Positions 26,169-44,115 are shown, counted from the stretch's first letter. The stretch is 64,000 nt of DNA from an uncultured Gemmatimonadales bacterium (GCA_963851265.1 CAWKNZ010000007.1:384001-448000), one strand, 5' to 3'. Program-made: numbers and translations. Notes: generated by a model from the sequence alone, not told the origin.

Positions 26169-28322
26169 TCAGTACGCGAGCACCTCGGTGACCGCGCGCT
26201 TGAACGTCTCGACCTGCGGCAGGATTGCGTCCTCGAGCGAGGGCGCGTAGCCGACGAACGTGTCGGTGCTGGCGACGCGTTTGACCGGCGCGTCGAGCCA
26301 CGCGAAGCAGTCGTCGGCGATGCGCGCGGCGATCTCGGCGCCATAGCCCCAGGAGATCGAATCCTCGTAGCCGACGATCACGCGCGACGTCTTCTTCACG
26401 CTCGCGTACACCGCCTCGCGGTCCCACGGCGCGAGCGTGCGCAGGTCGATGACCTCGACGTTCACGCCGCTTTCCTCGGCCAGCTGGTTGGCCGCGGCGA
26501 GGGCGCGCTGCACCGTCGCGCCGTAGGTCACGATCGTCGCGTCGGTGCCCTCGCGCACCGTGCGCGCCTTGCCGAACGGGATCATGAAGTTGGGCCCCGC
26601 GTACCGCCCCTTGTTGTACGTCTGGCGGTAGAGGTGCTTGTGCTCGAGGAAGATCACGGGGTCGTCGCAGCGGATGCTCGTGCGCAGCAGCCCGGCCGCG
26701 TCGAGCGCGGTGCTGGGGCAGACGACGCGGAGTCCCGGGCAGTGCGTGAACAACGACGCGCCGGTCTGCGAGTGGTAGATCGCGCCGCGGATGTAGCCGC
26801 CGTACGTCGTGCGCACGACGACCGGCGCCGCGAACGCGTTGTTGGACCGCCAGCGCATCGTCGCGAGTTCGTCGCGCAGCTGCATGTAGGCCGTCCAGAT
26901 GTAGTCGAAGAACTGGATCTCGACGACCGGCTTGAAGCCGCGGTGCGCGAGCCCGATCGCCCGCCCGATTATGTTGGCCTCGGCGAGCGGGCTGTTATAG
27001 ACGCGGGCCGACCCGAATTCGGTCTGCAGGCCGTGCGTCGCCTTGAACACGCCCCCCTTGCCCTTGACCTTCCCGAGGTGCTGCTCGCGGCTCACGTCGG
27101 CGACGTCCTCGCCGAACACGAGGATTCGCTCGTTGCGGCGCATCTCGTCCCGGAGCACCGCGTTGATGCTGTCGATCATCGTGACGTCGCCGCCCGAGAG
27201 CTGCGGGTCGTCTTCCGTGTCGAACTGCTCGCCCGTCGGGTCGACGTCGGGGGAGTAGACGAAGTCGTAGACCGTGTCGGCGGCCGGCTGCGGCTGTGCG
27301 AGCGCGTCGTCGGTGGCGGCCAGGATCTCCGCGTCGACGTCGGCGGCGATCGCGTCGAGCTGGTCGTGCGTCGCGTGACCGCTGGCGACGAGCCACGCCG
27401 GGAAGGTCGTCAGCGGGTCGCGCCGGGCGTCCTCGTCGCGCTCCTCCTGCGGGCGGTAGAGCGTCTCGTCGTCGGAGAGCGAGTGCGAGTACGGGCGGAT
27501 CACCTTCGCGTGCACGAGCGCGGGGCCGCGGCGTGCGCGCGCGTGCGCGACCGCGCGCGACACCGCCTCGTAGCTCGCCAGGAGGTCGCAGCCGTCGACG
27601 CGCTCGATGTGCAGGTCGGGGAAGTTCTCGACGAGGTCCGAGATCGAGCCGCCCGCCGTGTTCACCTCGACCGGGACCGAAATGGCGTAGCCGTTGTCCT
27701 CGACGAAGTAGACGACCGGCAGCTTGAGGTTGCTGGCCGTGTTCATCGACTCCCAGAACTCGCCCTGGCTCGTCGTCCCGTCGCCGGTCGAGACGAACAC
27801 CACCTCGTCGCCGTGGAAGCCCTCCGCGATACCGAGCAGTCGCGCGCGGAGGGACCCTTCGGCGGCGCCGACCCCTTGCAGGAACTGCGTGCCCGTGGGC
27901 GAGGAGGAGCTGGCGATGTTCAGCGCCTTGTGCCCCCAGTGCGACGGCATCTGTCGGCCGCCCGAGCTCGGGTCGGCGGCGGCGCCGACGGCCGAGTACA
28001 GCATGTCGCGGGCGGTCATCCCGAGCGCGAGGCAGAGGGCGCGGTCGCGGTAGTAGGTGTAGAACCAGTCGTACCCCGCCTTGAGGACGAGGCCCGCCGC
28101 GGTGAGGATCGCCTCGTGCCCCGCGCCCGAGATCTGGAAGAAGATCTTGTTCTGCCGCTTCAGCTGGACCTCCTTGTCGTCGAGCCGGCGCGACAGGAGC
28201 ATCGTGCGGTAGGCGGCAAGGAGCTGATCGCGGCTCAGAGGCGTCGCGGCGCCCTTCGGCGCTGCCGCTGGGGCCGCGGCGGCGGAGGCGGGCCTGCGGG
28301 TCGGGCGGGTGCTGGTGGCCAT
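26169..28322 (-). CDS. 2-oxoacid (probably branched-chain) dehydrogenase E1, fused alpha/beta
   Basis: GRQMPSH, TPP motif [43 protein letters not shown]. Confidence 0.93.
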
Positions 28323-28544
28323 ACTTCGGATGCGGGACGGGTGCGAAACGCGCCACGGCAAGATAGGGGGCGGCCCCCGTACGGCGGGATGGGCGCGCGT
28401 CCGCCAGCGCGGCGGCGACCGCTCGGTCCGGTATGGCGGCGTCTGGCAGGCGTAGTAGTCCTGCTACACAAAACGTCTGCAGCCGACCGAATTGCCGGGC
28501 CCGCGCGGCCCGGACGGGCGATGCAGGGACGAGACGCGTCCGGA

Positions 28545-33472: not shown

Positions 33473-34852
33473 CTACTGCTCCAGCGTGTACAGGTACGCC
33501 GCGATGTCGCGCGCGTCGCCGTCGGTGACGCCGAGGTTGGGCATCGCGTTGCCGGGCGCGACCGACTGCGGCATCACGATCCACTGGACCAGATGCTCGG
33601 GCGTGTTGGCGAGGTAGCCCGCGATGATCGCGCGCTCGCGCCAGCCGGTGAGCGGCGGGCCGACCATCCCGTCGGCGCCGCGGATGCCGGGAATCAGGTG
33701 GCACGATCCGCAGCCGTACGTGCGGATGGCGCGCGCGCCGCGGGCCGGGTCTGCCGCGAGGTGCGCGCCGCCCTGGATGGACGCGAGTTCGCCCGTGCTC
33801 GCCAGATCACCGCCGACCTCGCTCCCCTCGCGGCGGCCCTCGCCCCCGCATGCGCCGAGCAACACGAACACGAGGAGCGCCGCGGCCGTCGCGCCGAACG
33901 CGTGCGCCGACCGGAGCCCGCGCGCCGGCGCGCCACGCGACCGGCGCGCGTCGGCGAGCATCCACCGCGCCGCGAGTGCGAGCGCGGCGCCGACGTAGAC
34001 GAGCCCCGCCGGCACCCACATCACGAGCCCGGCCAGTTGCTGATCGGCGATGAGCGTCGTGTGCCACGCGCGCGCGCCCGCCGCGTGCACGGGGTACCAC
34101 GGCGCGCGCGAGAAGGCGAGCAGCGCGCCCATCGCGCTGCCCAGCAGCCCCATGCTCATCACGTACAGGATGCCGGCCGCCTCGCCGAGCACCCGACGCC
34201 CGGTCGGCTGCGCCACGCGCCACCAGAACAGCCACGCCGTGCCGAGGAAGCTGACGTGCTCCAGCGCGTGCACCGCGTCGTTGCCTAACGCCGCCGAGTA
34301 GAGGACGGGGACGTGCCAGGCGACGAGCGCCACCGCGTGGAGCAGCCACGCCGCGGCCGGGGTGGCGACGGCGTGCGTGACCGCGCGCGCCGCCCGCTGC
34401 GGCGCGCGCCGCGCGTTCCACCACCTGGCCAGCGCGCGCCGGGCGCCCGCCGGCGGCGCCCACGCGAGCGCGAGCGGCAGGTTGGCGAGGGCGAGCAGCG
34501 GGGCGGCGACGAGGATCAGCAACAGGTGCTGGGCCATGTGCGCCGAGAAGAGCGCGTCTGCCACGGCATCGAATGGGGACACGAGCGCGGCGAGCAGGAC
34601 GACGATGGCCGCCGCGAACGCCCGCGCCTGCGCGATGCGGACCCCGCGCCCGCGACCCGCCCGCGCCCAGATCCGGCGCACGCCGAGCGCGTACGCCGCG
34701 GCGAGCAGGAGCGACGCGACGAGCGGGCCGACGTCGGGCGCCCACCCACCGGCGGCGCCCACCGCGTGCTGGCCCACCGGGTGCGCCCACGCCACCGCGG
34801 GTGTGAGCAGGGCGGCCAGGACGAACCGAACGTGTCGCGCGGTCACCGACAT
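33473..34852 (-). CDS. caa3-type CtaG assembly protein fused to C-terminal cytochrome c
   Basis: FSAHMAQHLLL, WHVP, HALEH, DQQLAGLVMW; then CGSCH and AMPNL. Confidence 0.88.
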   Translation of the reverse strand: MSVTARHVRFVLAALLTPAVAWAHPVGQHAVGAAGGWAPDVGPLVASLLLAAAYALGVRRIWARAGRGRGVRIAQARAFAAAIVVLLAALVSPFDAVADALFSAHMAQHLLLILVAAPLLALANLPLALAWAPPAGARRALARWWNARRAPQRAARAVTHAVATPAAAWLLHAVALVAWHVPVLYSAALGNDAVHALEHVSFLGTAWLFWWRVAQPTGRRVLGEAAGILYVMSMGLLGSAMGALLAFSRAPWYPVHAAGARAWHTTLIADQQLAGLVMWVPAGLVYVGAALALAARWMLADARRSRGAPARGLRSAHAFGATAAALLVFVLLGACGGEGRREGSEVGGDLASTGELASIQGGAHLAADPARGARAIRTYGCGSCHLIPGIRGADGMVGPPLTGWRERAIIAGYLANTPEHLVQWIVMPQSVAPGNAMPNLGVTDGDARDIAAYLYTLEQ

Positions 34853-35265
34853 CCCTCCACGAACGCGGCGCCCGTCGCCAGTACGATGCCGATGAGGGCG
34901 ATCGCCGCGAGCACGCCGCCGAAGAGGGCGAGGAACGCGGCCCGTTCATTCCGGACCCCAGTGCCGACGATGTCGGCGTGCGGAAAGCGGCGGCGCCCGC
35001 GCGCGAGCGCGACCGTCACGAGCGCCATGAGCACGAGCGCGACGGCCGACGCGGGAAGCGAGATCGCGCGCGGCCCGCCTCCGGCCCGGCACGCGTTGTA
35101 CGACCCGATGTAACTCACCGCCTCGTGGAGCGCCCAGACGATCGGTCCGAGCGCGAACCAGATCCAGAGTCGCCGCAGGGCGCCCGGCGGCGGTGGCGGC
35201 GCCGAGGGCTTCCCGCCCGATGCGGACGGTGCGGGTGCCGAGGAGGACGTTGCGGATGCGGCCAT
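34843..35265 (-). CDS. Small membrane protein in the oxidase operon
   Basis: Three TM segments; GPIVWALH...Y...AC; C-terminal Cys. Confidence 0.7.
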   Translation of the reverse strand: MAASATSSSAPAPSASGGKPSAPPPPPGALRRLWIWFALGPIVWALHEAVSYIGSYNACRAGGGPRAISLPASAVALVLMALVTVALARGRRRFPHADIVGTGVRNERAAFLALFGGVLAAIALIGIVLATGAAFVEGCR

Positions 35266-35275
35266 CAGTCCCTCC

Positions 35276-35899
35276 TCAGAAGCGCGGCGCGAGGTAGAGC
35301 GACGTGAACACGATGAGCCACACCGCGTCGACGAAATGCCAGTACAACACCGTGTTGTTCACCGCGAGCGTGCGCCCGGGCGGAAACGCCCCCGTGATCG
35401 CGCGCAGCAGCGTGTGGCCGAGCGCGAGCAGCCCGGCGAACACGTGCGCGCCGTGGAACCCGGTGATCGTGTAGAACATCGAGCCGTACGCGTCGGTCTG
35501 CGGCCGGAACTCCGCGCGCGACCACTCGAGCCCCTGCACGCCGAGGAACACCGCGCCCATCACGATCGTGAGCGCGAGGCCCGCGATGAGGCCGCCGCGG
35601 TTGCCGCGGTCGGCGCTCCGGTCGGCCCACCACGCCGCGCCGCTGCTCGCGACGAGCAGCGCGGTGTTGGGCGCGACGAGCGCGAGCGGCGGCGCGCCGG
35701 TGGTCGGCCAGGTCGCGTGCTGCACGGCGAGGTAGAAGTAGCTCCCGAGCAGGTAGCTGAACAGCGCGGCCTCGGTCGCGAGCAGCACCATCATCCCCCA
35801 CCAGCCCACGTCGTGCCCGCCGCGCCCGGCGGACACCGGCGGGCGCGCGGGCGCGCCCGCGGCGACGTCGTTAGGCGCCGTCGCGCCGGCCGCGCTCAC
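35276..35899 (-). CDS. ctaE: Cytochrome c oxidase subunit III (short form)
   Basis: ATEAALF, TGFHGAHV, LYWHFVDAVW; GTGA overlap with subunit I. Confidence 0.9.
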   Translation of the reverse strand: MSAAGATAPNDVAAGAPARPPVSAGRGGHDVGWWGMMVLLATEAALFSYLLGSYFYLAVQHATWPTTGAPPLALVAPNTALLVASSGAAWWADRSADRGNRGGLIAGLALTIVMGAVFLGVQGLEWSRAEFRPQTDAYGSMFYTITGFHGAHVFAGLLALGHTLLRAITGAFPPGRTLAVNNTVLYWHFVDAVWLIVFTSLYLAPRF

Positions 35900-37899
35900 G
35901 CCGTACCCCCGCCGTAGGCGGGCTCGGCGCCGCCGTCGCCGCTCCGCGGCGGCACGCCCGGCGCGTGGTGCCCGGCCGGCCAGAACCACGCGCCCAGTGC
36001 GAGGACCGTCGCCGCCACCCCGAGCACCGACGGCCAGAAGCCGCGCAGCATGAGCCCCCAGAACAGCAGCGCGAGCGCGGCCGCGAGCGCGAGCGGCCAC
36101 GGCGAGTCGCCGGGCATGTGCATGATCCCCTCGTCACCCGCGTCCATCACCGTCGTGCCGAGCGTCTCGCGGCCCTCGAGCAGCGTCGCCCCGCGCGCGC
36201 CCGAGTCCAGGGCCGCGATCTCGTCGGCGCCCTGCTCCCACAGCGGCTCACGCCCGCGCACGGTCGGGATGCGCGCGAAGTTGTACGCCGGCGGCGGCGA
36301 GCTCACCGACCACTCCAACGTGCTCGCGCCCCACGGGTTGTCGCCGGCCGGCTCGCCGCCGGCCAACGAGCGCACCACGTTCGCGAGGAAGACGAGGAAG
36401 CCGATCGAGAAGATCGCCGCCCCGATCGTCGACCACATGTTCGCGCTGTCGAACCCCATCCCCTGCGCGTACGTGTAGACCCGCCGCGGCATCCCGGCGA
36501 GGCCGAGCTGGTGCATGGGCCAGAAGAGCACGTTCGCCCCGACGAACAGCAGCCCGAACGAGAGCTTGCCGAGCCCCTCGTGCATCATCTTGCCGGTGAA
36601 CTTCGGGAACCAGTAGTGGATGCCCGCGAGCACCGGGAACACGTTCGCGCCGACGAGGACGTAGTGCAGGTGCGCCACCACGAAGTACGTGTCGGTCACC
36701 TGGCGGTCGAAGGCGACGAGGCCCGTCATCACGCCGCTCAGCCCCCCAATCACGAACAGGAGGAGGAACCCGATGCAGTACAGGAAGGGCGTCTTGTAGA
36801 CCGGCTTCCCGAACCAGATCGTGGTCACCCAGGCCACTGTCGTGATGCCGCTCGGCAGCGACACGGTCATGCTCGCCGCCGAAAAGAACGACGTCGACAT
36901 CGCCGACATGCCGGTCACGAACATGTGGTGCGCCCACACGCCGAAGCCGAAGATCGCCACCGCGACGCTCGCCAGCGCGACGAGCGTGTACGCGGCGAGC
37001 GGCCGGCGGCAGAATGTCGGAATGATGGTCGAGACGATACCGAACGCCGGCAGCACGACGACGTACACCCACGGGTGCCCGAACACCCAGAACAGGTGCT
37101 GCCAGAGGAGCGCGCTGCCGCCGCCCTGGGGGTCGAAGAAGTGCATGCCGTAGCGCCGGTCGAGCTCGAGGAAGACGAGCGCGACGGTGAGCGACGGCAA
37201 CGCGAAGACGATCGCCACCGACGCGCTCAGCGTGCTCCACACGTAGATCGGCATCCGGTTGATCGACATTCCCGGCGCCCGCAACTTCGCGATGCTGACG
37301 ATGAAGTTGGCCGCGCCCACCGTCGTCGAGATCGTCAGGAACAGCAGCCCGAGCGCGTAGAAGTCGAGGTTCGGCCCCGGCGAGTACGCGCGCGAGGTGA
37401 GCGGCACGTACGCGAACCAGCCGCCGTCGGGCGCCTGGCCGACGAGGATGCTGCCGTAGAGGAAGCACCCCGCGAACAGGAAGCTCCAATAGCTGAACGC
37501 GTTGAGGCGCGGGAACGCCATGTCGCGCGAGCCGATCAGCAGCGGCACGAGGTAGTTGCTGAAGCCCGACAGCACCGGCGATGCGTAGAGGAAGATCATC
37601 GCCGTGCCGTGCATGCTGAACAGCTGGTTGTACGCCTCGGGCGAGAGGAACCGCGAGTCGGGGCGCGCGAGCTGCACGCGCATGAGCGCCGCGTCCGCGC
37701 CGGCGAGCACGAAGAAGAACGCCGCCGTCCACAGGTAGCGGATCCCGATCGTCTTGTGGTCGACGCTCGTGAGCGCGCCGGCGAGCGTGCGCGGGGTTTC
37801 CCAGATCCACCGCAGCCGTTCGACGGCGGCGCGCGGGTCCGTCGCGCGCGGGTCGGCGGGGGCGACGGGGACGGGCGTGGGTTCGACGCGCGTGGCCAT
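35896..37899 (-). CDS. ctaD: Heme-copper oxidase subunit I (atypical A-family-like)
   Basis: DHKTIG, MHGTAM, DMAFPRLN, GHPWVY, WAHHM, AHLHYV, GMPRR. Confidence 0.93.
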   Translation of the reverse strand: MATRVEPTPVPVAPADPRATDPRAAVERLRWIWETPRTLAGALTSVDHKTIGIRYLWTAAFFFVLAGADAALMRVQLARPDSRFLSPEAYNQLFSMHGTAMIFLYASPVLSGFSNYLVPLLIGSRDMAFPRLNAFSYWSFLFAGCFLYGSILVGQAPDGGWFAYVPLTSRAYSPGPNLDFYALGLLFLTISTTVGAANFIVSIAKLRAPGMSINRMPIYVWSTLSASVAIVFALPSLTVALVFLELDRRYGMHFFDPQGGGSALLWQHLFWVFGHPWVYVVVLPAFGIVSTIIPTFCRRPLAAYTLVALASVAVAIFGFGVWAHHMFVTGMSAMSTSFFSAASMTVSLPSGITTVAWVTTIWFGKPVYKTPFLYCIGFLLLFVIGGLSGVMTGLVAFDRQVTDTYFVVAHLHYVLVGANVFPVLAGIHYWFPKFTGKMMHEGLGKLSFGLLFVGANVLFWPMHQLGLAGMPRRVYTYAQGMGFDSANMWSTIGAAIFSIGFLVFLANVVRSLAGGEPAGDNPWGASTLEWSVSSPPPAYNFARIPTVRGREPLWEQGADEIAALDSGARGATLLEGRETLGTTVMDAGDEGIMHMPGDSPWPLALAAALALLFWGLMLRGFWPSVLGVAATVLALGAWFWPAGHHAPGVPPRSGDGGAEPAYGGGTA

Positions 37900-38933
37900 T
37901 AGTGCAAGCTCTCGAGGTAGGCGACCACGGCCTGCAGGTCGGCGCCGGACATCGCGACGACGGGCATCCGGTTGCCGGGTTTGATCCGCTGCGGGTCGCC
38001 CACCCAGCCGGCGAGGTCGCCGCGCGTGTTGGGCAGCGTCCCGGCGGCGAGCGTGGCGCGGCTCGCCAGGTGTGTGAGGTCGGGCCCGGCCTGCCCGCCG
38101 AACTCGGTGCCGCGTACCGCGTGACATCCCGCGCAGCCGAGCGACGCGAACGCGACGCGCCCGGCCTGCTCGTCGGGGCGGGTGGCGGGCGCCGCGGGCG
38201 CGTGCTGCGCGGCGAGCCACTCGCCATACTCCACCGGCGTCTGGGCGACGACGGTGAACCCCATGTGCGCGTGCTGCTGCCCGCAGAACTCGCCGCACTC
38301 GCCGTAGTACGTGCCCGCCGTGTCGGCCTCGAGCCAGATCGTGTTCACCTGACCGGCGACGAGGTCGGTCTTGCCGGCGAGCTGCGGCACCCAGAAGGAG
38401 TGATTCACGTCTTGCGTGCTGAGGGCGATGCTGACGCGCCGGCCGACGGGCACGTGCAACTCGTTCGCGGTGACGACGCCGCTCTTCGGATAGCGCACCT
38501 CCCACCACCACTGGTGCCCGACGACCACCGCATCGGCGCGCGCGGCGGCGTCGGGGTCGTTGACGGCGAACGGCTGCGCCTGCGCGTTGGTCTTCACCGT
38601 CGACCAGACGAACACGGCGGCCAGCACGAGCGCCGGCAGCACGAGGCCTAACATCAGGATGCCGCGCACCTCGTCCGGGTGGTCGTGCTGGTCGCGCGCG
38701 GACGCCGCGGCCCCGGCGACCGAGAGGTCGCCGCGCCCGCGGTTGCGCCAGAGGGGCGTCGCGAGAAAGCCGATGAAGATCAGGAAGACGATCGTCGAGA
38801 TCGCGATCAGCGCCCAGCCGAGCGCCGCCGACTCGACGGCCGCGCGCCCGCGGGCCGCGAAGATGGACAGCGTCGTCGGCGTCTGCGTCGGGATGAGCGC
38901 GAGCACCGCCAGCGTGGCACGCAGCGCCGTCAC
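37899..38933 (-). CDS. ctaC: Cytochrome c oxidase subunit II with CuA site and fused cytochrome c (caa3 type)
   Basis: HQWWW, DVNHSFW, CGEFCGQQHAHM, CAGCH, KPGNRMP. Confidence 0.93.
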   Translation of the reverse strand: MTALRATLAVLALIPTQTPTTLSIFAARGRAAVESAALGWALIAISTIVFLIFIGFLATPLWRNRGRGDLSVAGAAASARDQHDHPDEVRGILMLGLVLPALVLAAVFVWSTVKTNAQAQPFAVNDPDAAARADAVVVGHQWWWEVRYPKSGVVTANELHVPVGRRVSIALSTQDVNHSFWVPQLAGKTDLVAGQVNTIWLEADTAGTYYGECGEFCGQQHAHMGFTVVAQTPVEYGEWLAAQHAPAAPATRPDEQAGRVAFASLGCAGCHAVRGTEFGGQAGPDLTHLASRATLAAGTLPNTRGDLAGWVGDPQRIKPGNRMPVVAMSGADLQAVVAYLESLH

Positions 38934-39640
38934 GGGCCGGTGGTGCGCGGGGCGACGACGAGCGAGCCGGTGGCGTGGCGCGCGTGGCCGCCCGGCCACG
39001 GCTCGCCGCGCGTCTGCGCGATGGCCCAGACGTAGGCCGCGACCTCGCGCGTCTCGTCGGCCGTGAGGTCGCCGTAGAGTCCGCGCATCGGCATCGCCAC
39101 CTGCGAGCGGGTGATGTTTTCGGGCACGCCGTTGAGGATGAGAGAGTCGGCACCCGCCCACCCGGCCGCGTTCTCGATCGGCACGTAGATGAGACCGGCC
39201 GTCAGGGAGGACCCGCGCTTGGGAAGACCGGTCGCCTCCATGCCGTGGCACTGAAAGCAGCCGCCCTTCCCGTGGAAGATCGCGTCGCCCGCGACGATGT
39301 CGTCCACGCGCATGCTGTCGGGGAGGGTGGGCAGCGTATCGGGCTGAGACTCCTCGTCGGTCTCCGTGACGCGCGCCAGCGCGAGCGGGGTCGTGCTCGC
39401 GAACACGCTCGCGCCGGTCGACGACGCCGCGCCGGGCGGCGCGACGGCGCCGAGCGTGCGGAGCGCGCCATACGGCTGGTCGCTGCCGCGCGCCGCGTTG
39501 GTCGCATGCAGGAGGTCGGTCGCGAGAAGTCCTCCACCCACGACGATCACGGTCGCGACCGCCCAGACGGCGCGCCGGCTCACGCGTGGCTCCGCCGGCG
39601 GCTCTGCTCGGGGCGAATCGGTTGGCTGCGGTGTTGGCAC
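38930..39640 (-). CDS. Monoheme cytochrome c (paralog 2)
   Basis: N-terminal TM segment; GKGGCFQCHG; distal AMPMRG. Confidence 0.88.
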   Translation of the reverse strand: MPTPQPTDSPRAEPPAEPRVSRRAVWAVATVIVVGGGLLATDLLHATNAARGSDQPYGALRTLGAVAPPGAASSTGASVFASTTPLALARVTETDEESQPDTLPTLPDSMRVDDIVAGDAIFHGKGGCFQCHGMEATGLPKRGSSLTAGLIYVPIENAAGWAGADSLILNGVPENITRSQVAMPMRGLYGDLTADETREVAAYVWAIAQTRGEPWPGGHARHATGSLVVAPRTTGP

Positions 39641-39643
39641 GGC

Positions 39644-41482
39644 TCAGTGTTTTCCGCCGCTACTGCCGCCGCTACTCGGCCGCGGGAGCGTGTCGACGGT
39701 GGTGACCGTCGGTGAGGTGGTGCGACCGCGCGCGTCGAGCGTGAACACGACGACCTCGTCCCCGCGCGGCGTGTTGGCGAGCAGGTTCCCGCCCGCGGCC
39801 ACGGCGACGTACTGCACGCCGTCGATCGCGTAGGTCATCGGCGGGGCGTTCACGCCGGCGCGCGCCGTGTACGCCCAGAGCTGCGCGCCGGTGCGCGCGT
39901 CGAGCGCAAGCACCTTCTTGTCGGACGTTCCCGTGAACATCAGACCGCCCGCCGTGGCGAGCGCGCCTCCGACCATCGGCTTCGGCGTCGGCACGAGCCA
40001 CGCGACGCGCCCGGTGTTCACGTCCACCGCGGAGATCGTTCCCGTGGGCTTCGACGTCGACGGGTAGTACCGGCCGCCGACGTACCACGCCCCGGGGTCG
40101 CGCTCCTCGTGCCGGCGCTTGTACAGGAAGGGCTCGCGCAACCCGAGGATGTACACGAGCCCGGTCTGCGGGCTGTACGCCGTGGGCGACCACTGCGAGC
40201 CGCCGAAGGCCCCGATCTGCTGCACCACGCCGCCCTGCAGCGGCGGGGCGGGGAAGGTCGGGCCGATGCCCGTGAACGGATCGGAGCGGCGGATGGGTGC
40301 CCCGGTGCGGCGGTCGACGATGAAGAACCACCCGGCCTTGCCCGCCTCGCCGGCGGCCGGCACCACGCGCCCCGACGCGTCGCGCACGTCGAACAGCACC
40401 ACCGGACTGGCGAGGTCGAGGTCCCACGTGTCGTGCGCGACTTCCTGCGCGCACCACGCGCGCTTGCCGGTGCGGTAGTCGACGGCGATGATGCTGTTGG
40501 CGCACAGGTTGTCGCCCGGCCGCACCGAGCCGTCGACGTCGGGCGACGTGTTGCCGGTCGAGAAGATCGCGTAGTGCAGCACCGTGTCTATGGCCGGGTT
40601 GTTCCAGACCGGCGCGCCGCCGTGCTTCCACGCGTCCGCGTACTTGGCGCTGTCGCGGTGTTCCTGCGCGAGGTCGCGGTGGAAGTCCGCGCCGAACGCG
40701 TCGCTCGCACCGAACTTCCCCCACCAGCCGCCGTCCTCGGGTCCCAACACCGTGTGAAAGCGCCAGAGTTCGTCGCCGCTGCGCGTGTCGAGCGCGACGA
40801 CGAAGCCGCGGATGCCGTACTCGCCGCCGCTCACCCCGAGCATCACCCGGTTCTCGATCACCGTGGGCGCCGCGCTGAAGCTGTAGCCCTGGGTGTTGTC
40901 GGCGACCTTGCGGTCCCACAGCAGGTGCCCCGTCGCCGCGTCCAGCGCCACGATGCGCGCGTCGAGCAGGCCCAGAAACACCCGGCCGCCGTACACGGCG
41001 ACCCCGCGGTTCATCGCCCCGCAGCAGATCACCGTCTTGCCGAGCTCGGGTACCCATTCCCAGCGCTTCGCACCGGTTCGCGCGTCGAGCGCGATCACGT
41101 GGTCGAGCGCGGTCGAGAGGTACATCGTGCCGTCGACCACGACCGGCGTGGCCTCGAACACGTGCGGCACGCCGGTCTTGTAGACCCAGGCGACGCCGAG
41201 GCGGCCGACGTTGGTCGTCGTGACCTGTGTGAGCGGCGACCAGCGCTGGTTGGAGTAGTCGCGCCCGTTGAGCGCCCACGCGCCCGTGTCGGCGAGGGCG
41301 CGGCGGAGGGCGGCGTCGGCCGTGCGCGCGTCGTCGGTGCGCACGGTCACGTGTGCGGCGGCGTCCGGCGTCCCGGCCGCGGCGGCGCGACCGCATCGTG
41401 TGGTCGCGGCGACCGCGGCGAGCGGGAGCAGCGCGGCCGCGCCGCGGCGCAGCGTTAGGCGAATCATACTCGGCGGCATCAT
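39644..41482 (-). CDS. PQQ-dependent alcohol-dehydrogenase-family protein (paralog 2)
   Basis: Vicinal ICCG, NRGVA, SGGEYGIRG, GNTSPD, HDTWDLD, QYVAVAAGG. Confidence 0.88.
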   Translation of the reverse strand: MMPPSMIRLTLRRGAAALLPLAAVAATTRCGRAAAAGTPDAAAHVTVRTDDARTADAALRRALADTGAWALNGRDYSNQRWSPLTQVTTTNVGRLGVAWVYKTGVPHVFEATPVVVDGTMYLSTALDHVIALDARTGAKRWEWVPELGKTVICCGAMNRGVAVYGGRVFLGLLDARIVALDAATGHLLWDRKVADNTQGYSFSAAPTVIENRVMLGVSGGEYGIRGFVVALDTRSGDELWRFHTVLGPEDGGWWGKFGASDAFGADFHRDLAQEHRDSAKYADAWKHGGAPVWNNPAIDTVLHYAIFSTGNTSPDVDGSVRPGDNLCANSIIAVDYRTGKRAWCAQEVAHDTWDLDLASPVVLFDVRDASGRVVPAAGEAGKAGWFFIVDRRTGAPIRRSDPFTGIGPTFPAPPLQGGVVQQIGAFGGSQWSPTAYSPQTGLVYILGLREPFLYKRRHEERDPGAWYVGGRYYPSTSKPTGTISAVDVNTGRVAWLVPTPKPMVGGALATAGGLMFTGTSDKKVLALDARTGAQLWAYTARAGVNAPPMTYAIDGVQYVAVAAGGNLLANTPRGDEVVVFTLDARGRTTSPTVTTVDTLPRPSSGGSSGGKH

Positions 41483-41497
41483 CGACTCGGCGTCATC

Positions 41498-42235
41498 TCA
41501 ACGCGCACCCCCCGCCGGGCGTTCGGCGGGCGTGCGACTCGCCTTGAGGCGGTTCGCAGGTTTCGCGTCGGCGCTCACCGTGGCCGGCGCACCGGTGCCG
41601 CGCGTCGGGCGGGCGGGCGGCACGCGCTCCGCGCCGCGCGGAACTGCGGATGCCGTGCCGGTGGCTGCCGCGGGCGTCGGAACGAGCGCGCCGTGCAGCT
41701 CGTGCCCGCCCGGCCAGGGCTCGCCGCGCGTCTGACTGATCGCCCACACGTACGCGGCCACGCGCCGGATCTCGTCCGACGAGAGGTCGCCGCGTGCCCC
41801 GCGCGCGGGCATCCCGATCGGGCTCCGGCTCTGCACGTCGGGCATCCCCGCGCGGATGAGCGAGTCGATCGCGCGCCACTGATACGGCACGTACGCCAGC
41901 CCGGCCGTGATGCCGTCGCCGGCCGCGGGCATCCCCTGCGCCTCGACGCCGTGGCACACGAAGCAGCCGCCCTTGCCGTGGAAGATGGCGTCGCCCGTCG
42001 TGATCTGGTCGAGTGTCATGCCGGGGGGCAGCGGCGCGAGCCGGGCCGGCTGCAGGTCGTCGTTGCGCGGGTTGGGCGAGGTCACGGCCGTATTGCCAGA
42101 GGGCTGCTGCGGGTGGGCCTGACCCTGCTGTGCGCCCGCGGCCGTCGCCGCGACCGCGAGCAGCGCGCAGGCTCGCGCGCCGAGTCGCGCGCCTCGGCGC
42201 GCGAGCCGATCGCGCACGTGCTGCACCACGGTCAT
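41498..42235 (-). CDS. Monoheme cytochrome c (paralog 1)
   Basis: Signal peptide; GKGGCFVCHG; GMPARG; ATGA overlap with the upstream dehydrogenase. Confidence 0.88.
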   Translation of the reverse strand: MTVVQHVRDRLARRGARLGARACALLAVAATAAGAQQGQAHPQQPSGNTAVTSPNPRNDDLQPARLAPLPPGMTLDQITTGDAIFHGKGGCFVCHGVEAQGMPAAGDGITAGLAYVPYQWRAIDSLIRAGMPDVQSRSPIGMPARGARGDLSSDEIRRVAAYVWAISQTRGEPWPGGHELHGALVPTPAAATGTASAVPRGAERVPPARPTRGTGAPATVSADAKPANRLKASRTPAERPAGGAR

Positions 42236-44115
42236 GGCTTCCCGCCGAGCACCGGATTCACCGCCGGCTCGCCCGAGCCGCGCGCCGTGTCCTGCATCGC
42301 ACGCGCCGTCGCCGCACGGCCCACCCCACCCTCCGCGCCGGTCGAGGCGCCGGTCCGCGGGCCGCCCGAGGCCCCCGCGCCGTCGAGCGCGAACACGAGC
42401 ACCTCGTCGCCGCGCGCGCTGTTGAGCGGCAGGTTGCCCCCGGCCGCCACCGCCACGTACTGCCGGCCGTTGAGCGCGTACGTCACCGCCGGCGCGTTCA
42501 CCCCCGCGCGCGCGCGGTAACGCCACACCTCGTGCCCGTTGCGCGCGTCGTACGCGACGAACGCCGAATCGGAGAGTCCGGTAAAGACGAGCCCACCCGC
42601 CGTCGCGAGCGCGCCGCTGATCGTCGGTTGCGCGAGCCGCACCTGCCAGGCGATGCGCCCGGTGTTGAGGTCGACGGCCGAGAACGTTCCGTAGTGCCCC
42701 GTCTGCCCAGACGTGACCACGCCGCCCCAGTACTGCGCCGGCGCCTGCAGCTCCTCGTGCTGCCGGCGGTACAGCTGCGGGAAGTAGTTGCCATCCACGT
42801 ACAGGTATCCCGTCTCGGGGCTGTAGGCCGGCGGTGACCAGTCCGACCCGCCGAGCGTGGACGGCGCGATCACGACGCCCGCCTCGGTCGGCACGGTGAA
42901 CATGTTCTCCTGCGGCACGAACGCGTCGGAGCGGCGGATCGGACGTCCGGTGCGGCGGTCGAGCACGTACACCCACCCCGTCTTGCCCGCCTGCGCGACC
43001 GCCGGCACGGCGCGGCCGGTCGAGTCGCGCACGTTCACTAGCACCACCGGCGATGCGGGGTCGTAATCCCACAGGTCGTGCGAGACCTCCTGGTAGTGCC
43101 AGCGGTACTCGCCCGTCTTGAGATCGATGGCGACGATGCAGTCGGTGAACAGGTTGTCGCCGGGCCGCACGCGGCCGTCCACGTCCGGGGCGGCGTTGCC
43201 GATGTTGAGATAGACCAAGCCCAACGCGGTGTCGACGGCCGGGGTGTGCCACATCGGGCCGCCGCCGTGGCGCCACGCGTCGGGGTACGTCGCGCTGTCC
43301 CGGTGCTCCTGCGCGAGGTCGCGGTGGAAGTCGGCGCCCCAGGGATCGCGTGCCCGCCACGCGCCCCACCAGCCGCCGTGCGCGGGATCGGGGATCGTGT
43401 AGAAGCGCCACACCTGCTTTCCGGTGCCCGCGTCGTACGCGGTGACGTAGCAGCGGCCGCCCTGCTCGCCGCACGAGATCCCGGTGATGACCTTGCCGTC
43501 GACCGCGAGCGGCGCGGCGGTGATGTGGTAGCCCTGCTGATTGTCGCCGACCGACACGTCCCACAGCAGGCGACCGCTCGCGGCGTCGAGCGCGACGAGG
43601 CGCGCGTCGACGGTCCCCATGAACACGCGCCCGCCGTAGACCGCCACGCCGCGGTTGATCGGCCCGCAGCAGTCGACGGTCGTCCGGTACGGGTGCACGT
43701 ACTCCCAGCGCTTCGCGCCGGTGGTCGCGTCGAGCGCGACGACGTGGTTGCGCGGCGTGGAGATGTACATCACCCCGTCGACCACGACGGGGCTCGTCTC
43801 GAAGCCGGCGACGATGCCGGTGTGGTAGATCCACGCGGGCGCGAGTCGCGCCACGTTCGCCGTCGTGATCTCGCCGAGTGGCGACCAGCGTTGATTCGAA
43901 TAGTCGCGGCCGTACGACGGCCACGCGGCGCCCGCCGCCATGGCCGACCGAATCGCCGCGTCGGCGTGCCGCGCGTCGACGCCCGCGGACGGCGCCTCAC
44001 GCGCGTCGGCATCCGTCCCGCGACAGCCCGTCCCTGCGGCGACCCCGGCGGCTAGTACTCCCATCACCCCACGACACCTGCCCGCCCGTGCGATCGCACG
44101 GCGTAACCGCCCCAT
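42232..44115 (-). CDS. PQQ-dependent alcohol-dehydrogenase-family protein (paralog 1)
   Basis: GGGAGGAG RBS; DCCG, NRGVA, SCGEQGGRC, GNAAPD, HDLWDYD, QYVAVAAGG. Confidence 0.88.
   Translation of the reverse strand: MGRLRRAIARAGRCRGVMGVLAAGVAAGTGCRGTDADAREAPSAGVDARHADAAIRSAMAAGAAWPSYGRDYSNQRWSPLGEITTANVARLAPAWIYHTGIVAGFETSPVVVDGVMYISTPRNHVVALDATTGAKRWEYVHPYRTTVDCCGPINRGVAVYGGRVFMGTVDARLVALDAASGRLLWDVSVGDNQQGYHITAAPLAVDGKVITGISCGEQGGRCYVTAYDAGTGKQVWRFYTIPDPAHGGWWGAWRARDPWGADFHRDLAQEHRDSATYPDAWRHGGGPMWHTPAVDTALGLVYLNIGNAAPDVDGRVRPGDNLFTDCIVAIDLKTGEYRWHYQEVSHDLWDYDPASPVVLVNVRDSTGRAVPAVAQAGKTGWVYVLDRRTGRPIRRSDAFVPQENMFTVPTEAGVVIAPSTLGGSDWSPPAYSPETGYLYVDGNYFPQLYRRQHEELQAPAQYWGGVVTSGQTGHYGTFSAVDLNTGRIAWQVRLAQPTISGALATAGGLVFTGLSDSAFVAYDARNGHEVWRYRARAGVNAPAVTYALNGRQYVAVAAGGNLPLNSARGDEVLVFALDGAGASGGPRTGASTGAEGGVGRAATARAMQDTARGSGEPAVNPVLGGKP

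Follow-up and report, generated by a model that had tools for sequence, protein, structure and literature searches.

How could a heme-copper oxidase supply its active site with protons after losing both the glutamate that terminates the D-channel and the lysine of the K-channel? The question is raised by coxI, a subunit I gene on the minus strand of a 64,000-nucleotide stretch of DNA from an uncultured Gemmatimonadales bacterium (GCA_963851265.1 CAWKNZ010000007.1:384001-448000), which is referred to below, at its full length, as the window. An earlier reading of the sequence alone had noticed both replacements and proposed altered proton routing, a non-pumping oxidase or altered chemistry such as nitric oxide (NO) reduction. 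The anatomy of the protein, the clade to which it belongs and the loss of both residues are evident from the alignments and trees described here. We favor, with a probability of about 0.55, the view that the gene encodes an accessory, dehydrogenase-fed caa3-type oxidase that would deliver protons without a carboxylate and pump few or none of them. Papers given by PMC accession or DOI are cited for passages of their text, and loci, genomes and contigs carry our working identifiers.

Subunit I lacks the D-channel glutamate and the K-channel lysine

The features of the gene on which the argument depends are the following.

35896..37899, minus strand: coxI, A-family heme-copper oxidase subunit I with a C-terminal two-helix COX4/CtaF-like extension (PF00115, TIGR02891)
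37522..37524, minus strand: Asp126, the D-channel entry (D132 equivalent), kept alongside N115, N133 and N198 (alignment)
37321..37329, minus strand: Ser191-Thr192-Thr193 hydroxyl cluster of the upper D-channel, Thr193 being new relative to most canonical neighbors (alignment)
37069..37071 (TGG), minus strand: Trp277, at the position of the D-channel terminal Glu, E286 (alignment to CyoB)
37063..37077, minus strand: His275-x3-Tyr279 cross-link motif, the hallmark of O2 reductases, intact (Tyr in 173/173 Trp rows of the alignment)
36841..36843 (ACG), minus strand: Thr353, at the position of the K-channel Lys, K362 (alignment to CyoB)

The gene is a single stop-free frame of 667 amino acids, and in Pfam/NCBIfam profile scans its product matched PF00115 with an E-value of 1e-146 and TIGR02891 above the cut-off. 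The solved proteins closest to it are actinobacterial aa3 oxidases (500 bits), with Bacillus and Thermus enzymes also found and ba3 reaching only about 36 bits. An AlphaFold model (AF2; predicted template modeling score 0.86) places two C-terminal helices at residues 601-617 and 621-638, and a fold search with this model returned caa3 oxidase 2yev as the best match. The identity of the C-terminal extension rests on two close homologues, in which PF12270 is present.

Escherichia coli CyoB (NC_000913.3) served as the numbered reference in an alignment of 309 subunits I, and Rhodobacter sphaeroides residue labels were transferred to the window protein through it. We take the two numberings to coincide from helix IV onward, which agrees with the labels used in the papers cited. 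In this alignment E286 corresponds to W277 and K362 to T353, as the sequence-only reading had it, and helix VI reads FGHPWVY, W282/G283 being F273/G274, so the Tyr-Ser (YS) pair is missing as well. On the K side T359 corresponds to S350 and S299 to S290, and on the D side D135/N124/N142/N207 correspond to D126/N115/N133/N198. All six His ligands (97, 275, 324, 325, 410 and 412) are present, and Y279 (= Y288), D398 (= D407) and the Arg pair R472/R473 (= R481/R482) are kept; the earlier description of the ligands, the cross-link Tyr and the Arg pair was likewise correct. The TDT at the Mg site, to which attention had also been drawn, is real and turned out not to be distinctive: a His occupies this position in only one of 14 near canonical sequences, the other 13 being non-His, and mycobacterial CtaD reads TDS, as does the canonical copy in the bacterium's own genome.

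Both residues are replaced throughout a widespread clade

In what follows, W stands for Trp at the E286 position and E/K for the canonical Glu and Lys, with E/Q, W/S and other combinations written likewise. A homologue search gave 8000 scored candidates, 7994 of which passed 1e-100; among the best 120, which were inspected, HPWVY occurred in 119/120, HPDVY in 1/120 and the Lys in 0/120. The 309-row alignment combined 86 open reading frames (ORFs) from genome loci with 223 of 270 fetched proteins, the remaining 47 having been removed for not spanning residues 95-480, and it includes some duplicate rows from different sources. Trp was found in 173/309 rows and Lys in none of the 173, in which its position was taken by Ala (86), Ser (44), Gln (30), Thr (7), Gly (4), Val (1) or Asp (1), while the active-site residues were intact in 172-173/173. 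In a FastTree phylogeny of 231 rows all 96 Trp rows formed one group (support 0.978) within a 149-row Lys-less group (support 1.0). A quick IQ-TREE phylogeny of 72 rows, computed with the two trait columns deleted and rooted on CyoB, required one change per trait, with Shimodaira-Hasegawa-like approximate likelihood-ratio supports of 95 and 99. A topology in which the Trp group was forced to join the two nearest E/K rows could be rejected, but the margin was modest (p = 0.037 in the approximately unbiased test). The placement sought for the protein is therefore in the A family, in a single Trp clade inside a larger Lys-less lineage. Since the Trp group is nested in the Lys-less group, the loss of the Lys, which gave way to Gln, came before that of the Glu, and the stepwise series is preserved as E/K, then E/Q, then W/Q, then W/A, W/S or W/T.

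Named W loci belong to Pseudomonadota (37), Gemmatimonadota (5), Acidobacteriota (5), Binatota (1) and Actinomycetota (1), so that the clade spans at least five phyla; its cultured members include Methylocella tundrae T4, Mesorhizobium sp. INR15, Paraburkholderia and Nitrosospira. One nested subunit I (locus L146, G254:C5) reads GHPFVY, in a genome with at least three such oxidase operons. The ratio of nonsynonymous to synonymous substitution rates (dN/dS) between the W oxidase and that of a congener was 0.109, compared with 0.119 for the canonical copy. It was 0.337 against a more distant congener, a value that we read as inflated by saturated, GC-biased synonymous sites. Strain-specific decay was ruled out by the 119/120 homologues, the 173-row clade and the dN/dS of 0.109, so neither uniqueness to this strain nor relaxed selection, either of which would have undermined the sequence-only reading, was found. 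The co-variation of W and T that it had suggested testing is not seen: W is fixed, and the Lys position varies among A, S, Q, T and G, with T in only 7/173. Thr353 was also considered as a B-type substitute for the Lys and rejected, as it is not clade-wide and toggles between Thr and Ala among congeners.

These results bear on whether the gene is a paralogue that has degenerated or is catalytically dead. In canonical enzymes both losses are lethal, and respiration could be covered by the canonical oxidase instead; yet the frame is open, the operon tight and the assembly factor kept, the dN/dS is no higher than that of the canonical copy, and the ligands are invariant across the phyla named. 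We regard a dead paralogue as extremely improbable.

The D-channel is retained while the K-channel has been lost

Among the 173 Trp rows, the D-channel residues are nearly invariant (D126 in 172, N115 in 164, N133 in 172, N198 in 173, Y55 in 171 and S191 in 173), whereas in the Glu-keeping, Lys-less sister group (n = 37) the same positions are conserved in 15, 1, 23, 0, 17 and 20 rows, respectively. Since the sister group has lost these residues, the fold can do without them, and their retention in the Trp clade suggests that they are used. On the other side of the protein, the S365 position holds Ser or Asn in 15/173 Trp rows versus 14/14 canonical neighbors. The Glu of subunit II at the K-channel entry occurs in 0/47 scorable W loci and is absent from 22 other Lys-less loci, compared with its presence in 11/11 E/K loci by eye (9/11 by regular expression). 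As judged from these alignments, the whole K-channel has been lost coherently, subunit II included, while the D-channel body has been kept under selection.

Several hydroxyl residues are newly fixed in the Trp rows, at positions 193 (172/173), 225 (171/173), 311 (172/173), 314 (156/173), 347 (115/173) and 392 (170/173), which are mostly apolar or Gly in the 14 canonical neighbors; further fixed novelties are Asn419 and Arg54 (171/173 each), and the L238 position is reduced to Ala, Ser or Gly. L238, A319, G324, A356 and G398 have been placed on the K-channel wall (PMC9687966), and I323 on the path to Y288/T359 (PMC4256069); on this basis the new hydroxyls would line the old K side. A relocated acid was also sought and rejected: none is conserved in subunit I, in the subunit II helices or in the small hypothetical protein of the operon (subunit III lay outside this search). 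No clade-specific acid occurs in the subunit I helices, those at 69 and 291 being shared with canonical enzymes, so no compensating protonatable residue of a known subfamily came to light. Altered routing and a non-pumping oxidase, as proposed by the sequence-only reading, fit the lost K-channel, the kept D-channel and the fixed hydroxyls. All displayed subunits II have a complete set of CuA ligands. The subunit II Glu at the Mg/CuA site is replaced in 17/48 W loci versus 0/34 others, as expected if the exit site were relaxed.

Three other readings are to be weighed against these residues. The first is a non-electrogenic O2 reductase: with the D-channel blocked by the Trp and the K-channel absent, protons would be taken from the periplasm, as in cNOR, and the enzyme would act as an uncoupled sink for the electrons of periplasmic dehydrogenases. 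It has in its favor that both canonical gates are missing with no substitute acid found, that the nested copy in L146 has Phe, and that the Trp adds to the constriction of the O2 channel, where E286 lies with W172 and F282 (PMC4256069), the latter two being kept in 172/173 and 169/173 Trp rows. The near-invariant D-channel residues, compared with their decay in the sister clade, and the new conserved hydroxyls on the K side argue against it, and we think it unlikely. The second reading is that of a fully or nearly fully pumping oxidase, in which unrecognized substitutes such as water clusters, Thr193, Asn419 and Arg54 stand in for both residues. A2 enzymes do replace the Glu by hydroxyl groups (PMC8361435), and the clade has kept W172, D407 and the Arg pair, with N419 and R54 fixed; the missing YS pair, the lack of an acid at the branch point and the loss of the Mg-site Glu at 17 W loci speak against it, and it seems to us doubtful to a slightly greater degree. 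The third is a cytochrome c peroxidase-like enzyme performing only the peroxidase half-cycle on H2O2. K362M abolishes oxidase activity and leaves peroxidase activity (PMC7601700), and here it is the K side that has gone and the D side that remains; but D-channel mutations block peroxidase activity (PMC7601700), the Glu is gone and the Tyr is invariant, which makes this reading very unlikely.

Some neighboring lineages have been altered in other ways. The E/Q copy in the own genome (L002:8168-10261, G000:C9) and the sister clade of the Trp group constitute a second Lys-less type that keeps GHPEVY, with the D-channel entry lost (Asp to Asn, Ser or Glu), N121 lost and often a new Glu at the N207 position (26/37), which is a separate rewiring. 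Actinobacterial Lys-to-Gln oxidases (L048, L049, L054, L046) keep the D-channel and carry a helix VII Glu at the M320 position that could stand in for the Lys; at one of these loci the E286 position is occupied by Leu. A W subclade that is for the most part betaproteobacterial (L033, L035-L038, L040, L041, L043, L045, L058, L006) is without a pyrroloquinoline quinone (PQQ) dehydrogenase and has lost the Mg/CuA Glu; FAHPWVY is frequent in it, and a large cytochrome c usually follows downstream.

The oxidase is encoded in an operon with two PQQ-type dehydrogenases

coxI is the sixth of nine co-oriented, mostly overlapping genes, the other eight of which are listed here in the order of transcription, and the same nine-gene order occurs in two congeners.

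42232..44115, minus strand: PQQ-type dehydrogenase 2, with the CC pair, the metal Glu and a DYD lanthanide-type motif (TIGR03075 464 bits, just below the cut-off of 480)
41498..42235, minus strand: monoheme cytochrome c, paralogue of the gene at 38930..39640 (profile scan, sequence comparison)
39644..41482, minus strand: PQQ-type dehydrogenase 1, with CC, metal-site Glu and D-x-D, apparently not XoxF3 (profile scans, motifs)
38930..39640, minus strand: monoheme cytochrome c, in a 4-bp overlap pattern with coxII (weak PF13442/PF00034)
37899..38933, minus strand: coxII, caa3 type, CuA ligands intact, C-terminal heme c, K-channel entry Glu absent (profiles, alignment)
35276..35899, minus strand: coxIII, short form (PF00510)
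34843..35265, minus strand: three-helix hypothetical membrane protein, in which two Cys but no buried acid are conserved (no Pfam/NCBIfam match)
33473..34846, minus strand: caa3-type CtaG fused to cytochrome c (PF09678, PF00034)

The solved proteins nearest to dehydrogenase 2 are quino(hemo)protein alcohol dehydrogenases. Both window dehydrogenases score about 250-290 bits against the XoxF3-like enzymes of other W loci and lie below the TIGR03075 cut-off; by these scores, rather than by a XoxF tree, they would fall outside XoxF3. The arrangement at 39644-44115, two PQQ-type dehydrogenases outside the XoxF3-like group, each followed by a related cytochrome c, has a counterpart in two other genomes, in which the same non-XoxF3 D-x-D type precedes XoxF-like genes and W oxidases (L096:639-2525; L097:13501-15354).

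Among 80 genome loci, a PQQ dehydrogenase adjoins the oxidase in 30/49 W, 8/21 other Lys-less and 0/10 E/K loci, or in 20/32, 5/12 and 0/6, respectively, if only loci with full flanks are counted; in the bacterium's own phylum the figure is 12/15 verified W loci. W loci without such a dehydrogenase often have a large cytochrome c downstream. On a plasmid of Mesorhizobium sp. INR15 (L152:1208-12691), pqqABCDE, a PQQ dehydrogenase, cytochrome c and a W-type oxidase form one gene string, which is a self-contained mobile module.

The three-helix hypothetical protein is a possible extra subunit. It accompanies the Lys-less lineage; an iterative profile built from it gathered 99 locus ORFs, among which were a few coxII N-termini, and late rounds also caught the N-terminal helices of some subunits II, which may reflect remote homology. 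An Atlas search with it returned hypothetical clusters only. FNR-like boxes were considered and discarded, the matches being coding sequence inside helix X and so no evidence of regulation. Elsewhere in the window (26169-28361) an ordinary-looking fused alpha-beta E1 subunit of a 2-oxoacid dehydrogenase is encoded, as judged from the ORF translation.

Canonical oxidases co-occur, and a clade member in Methylocella is probably induced

The own genome, which is 94% complete, encodes heme A synthase and four subunits I: W/T (this gene), W/S on C10, E/Q on C9 and canonical E/K on C2. A PqqC search matched nothing in it or in any control, and a lone PqqD-family match was found. The GHPWVY pattern at the DNA level matched 24 of 251 genomes of the phylum, but nine of the 24 fetched loci had no oxidase gene; the pattern also matches a non-oxidase gene in the phylum (L090-L092, L100, L103-L105, L107, L112). 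Verified W-type genes occur in 16/251 genomes, all 16 of which also match the canonical Lys motif, and two genomes that had appeared to be W-only proved to be false DNA-pattern matches. In one genome (L099, G187:C3) canonical E/K and W-type operons stand back to back, divergent, within 5 kb.

A plasmid of Methylocella tundrae T4 (L151:7965-16158) carries a ctaD with GHPWVY and Lys replaced by Ala beside a xoxF cluster, in the order dehydrogenase, binding protein, cytochrome c, ctaG, cytochrome c, hypothetical, cox3, ctaD, coxB. In a study of this strain, T4_00353-55 are given as the xoxF3 cluster and T4_00359-61 as an aa3 oxidase, the latter being up 17- to 60-fold in anoxic cells with methanol and N2O (bioRxiv 10.1101/2024.01.15.574570). 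Matched by gene order, the plasmid W-type oxidase is probably this induced T4_00359-61. Since many respiratory genes rose in the same condition, norBC among them (bioRxiv 10.1101/2024.01.15.574570), the induction speaks for expression and a response to low O2, not for function.

The same observation could be taken to favor a NO reductase or another nitrogen-oxide-handling enzyme, the more so as NO reductases (NORs) arose repeatedly from O2 reductases (PMC11214002). But O2 reduction needs the cross-link Tyr, which the NOR families described there lack (PMC11214002) and which is present in 173/173 Trp rows, no FeB Glu is seen, and Methylocella tundrae T4 already has norBC. NirK and NirS gave no hit above the cut-off in the own 94%-complete genome, and no nitrite or NO reductase was found among 48 neighbor ORFs scanned (from 82 candidates at 19 W loci). 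With the active-site Tyr, CuA and CtaG all kept, reduction of O2 is much more probable than that of NO, so the last of the chemistries put forward by the sequence-only reading is poorly supported, and we hold it to be quite unlikely.

A proposed route for electrons and protons

In the accessory oxidase that we favor, electrons would pass along a short periplasmic chain from a PQQ dehydrogenase to cytochrome c, heme c/CuA, heme a and finally the heme a3-CuB-Tyr center, where O2 would be reduced by normal His-Tyr chemistry. The chemical protons would still come from the cytoplasm, (i) through the retained D-channel up to the Ser-Thr-Thr cluster, with Ser/Thr-ordered water replacing the Glu, and/or (ii) through what is left of the K side, now relined with Ser/Thr, in the manner of B-type enzymes. 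With the Trp filling the E286 cavity and no protonatable gate present, pumping would be reduced or absent, while the enzyme would stay electrogenic through charge separation. It may serve as a low-yield outlet beside the canonical A1 pump, probably induced at low O2.

Several points weigh against this proposal. The Glu-to-Gln replacement blocks proton uptake in canonical enzymes (PMC8361435) and, with the effect of K362M, leaves a working bypass of both residues unproven. The Trp could plug the D-channel altogether, and the one nested copy with Phe is easier to reconcile with a plug than with a proton carrier. The placement of the new hydroxyls on the old K side is indirect, being derived from the alignment and published positions, and in the window subunit I itself position 314 is Val rather than Thr. 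The losses of the Mg/CuA Glu, 17 in all, fall largely in one subclade and are not independent. No PQQ dehydrogenase lies near 19 of the 49 W loci. Finally, the canonical motif is nearly universal (157/167 genomes of the two main families, a tally that includes G153), so its co-occurrence lends an accessory role weak support. A further, rather unlikely alternative is that the clade represents a third A-family subtype, which reduces O2 and pumps without Glu, Tyr-Ser or Lys by means of Ser/Thr-ordered water and a Trp-shaped cavity; if so, neither canonical residue would be needed for gating.

Comparison with known systems

No published description of the double Glu/Lys loss or of a HPWVY/GHPWVY motif was found, subscription literature being outside the search; the text supplements of PMC11214002 do not describe the double loss, and the passages of PMC6431628, PMC10715153 and PMC12901375 add nothing on what is known and what is new. 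Loss of the K-channel alone is a published, repeated event (10.1101/2020.03.01.968255; PMC8239418). It is seen in the A2 oxidases of acidophilic iron oxidizers, which resemble the Trp clade in having lost the Lys and the subunit II Glu and kept the D-channel, but these are classed as A2 and keep the D-channel terminus, whereas the Trp clade has neither the Glu nor YS.

With A1 aa3/caa3 enzymes (Mycobacterium CtaD 7rh5/6adq, Thermus caa3 2yev, R. sphaeroides 1m56) the window protein shares the fold (template modeling scores 0.70-0.82), the six His and cross-link Tyr of a heme-copper O2 reductase, the Arg pair, the D-channel body, a subunit II with CuA and heme c, and a TIGR02891 match above the cut-off. 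Its phylogenetic position and its CuA subunit II place it in the A family. The A-family D-channel residues (Asp124, Asn113, Asn131, Asn199, Tyr35, Ser134 and Ser193; PMC3084760) are represented by D126, N115, N133, N198, Y55, S136 and S191/T192. Among those of the K-channel (Lys354, Thr351, Ser291 and Tyr280; PMC3084760), the Ser and Tyr are kept, the Lys is Thr353 and the Thr is Ser. The clade departs from A1 in having Trp for E286 (W277 here, in place of the XGHPEVY Glu), Thr, Ala, Ser or Gln for K362, no S365, no subunit II Glu and a new Ser/Thr set. It resembles A2 (YSHPxVY) in a helix VI without Glu and a retained D-channel, but has no Tyr-Ser (F-G in 159-169/173, F273-G274 here), lacks the K-channel Lys and branches among A1 sequences. 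With B-type (ba3) enzymes it shares the absence of Glu and Lys, and the window subunit I has Thr/Ser at the K354/T351 positions of the B fingerprint (PMC3084760); but the D-channel is kept, Ser290 rather than Tyr stands at S291, the Thr is rare in the clade, and ba3 remains remote in score. The c/q/b/e/s/g/nNOR enzymes are characterized by the absence of the cross-link Tyr and by a Glu or other FeB ligand (PMC11214002, PMC3084760), a pattern not found here. Judged by its residues, the enzyme would be caa3-like in its working and belong to the A family by descent, yet it fits none of the A1, A2, B and NOR definitions.

The genes of this lineage are annotated as ordinary 'low-affinity proton-pumping aa3', a label that may give a false idea of how much energy PQQ- and lanthanide-linked chains yield in soil bacteria. 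The clade is a conserved natural counter-example, a widespread and culturable lineage with both residues replaced, and measuring its members would test proton delivery and pumping, and what the Glu and Lys are needed for. The operon type itself is already published: the gene content of the window operon is that of COX operon type a-II (PMC4013037) and of the XoxF3-cox clusters (PMC10875860), the shared features being the COX1-COX4 fusion, neighboring PQQ dehydrogenases, CtaG, cytochrome c and a small hypothetical after coxIII. The window operon differs in having two non-XoxF3 PQQ dehydrogenases; the passages of both papers do not discuss proton channels. What the present analysis adds is the sister-clade control, the order of the losses, the hydroxyl set on the K side and the probable link to expression.

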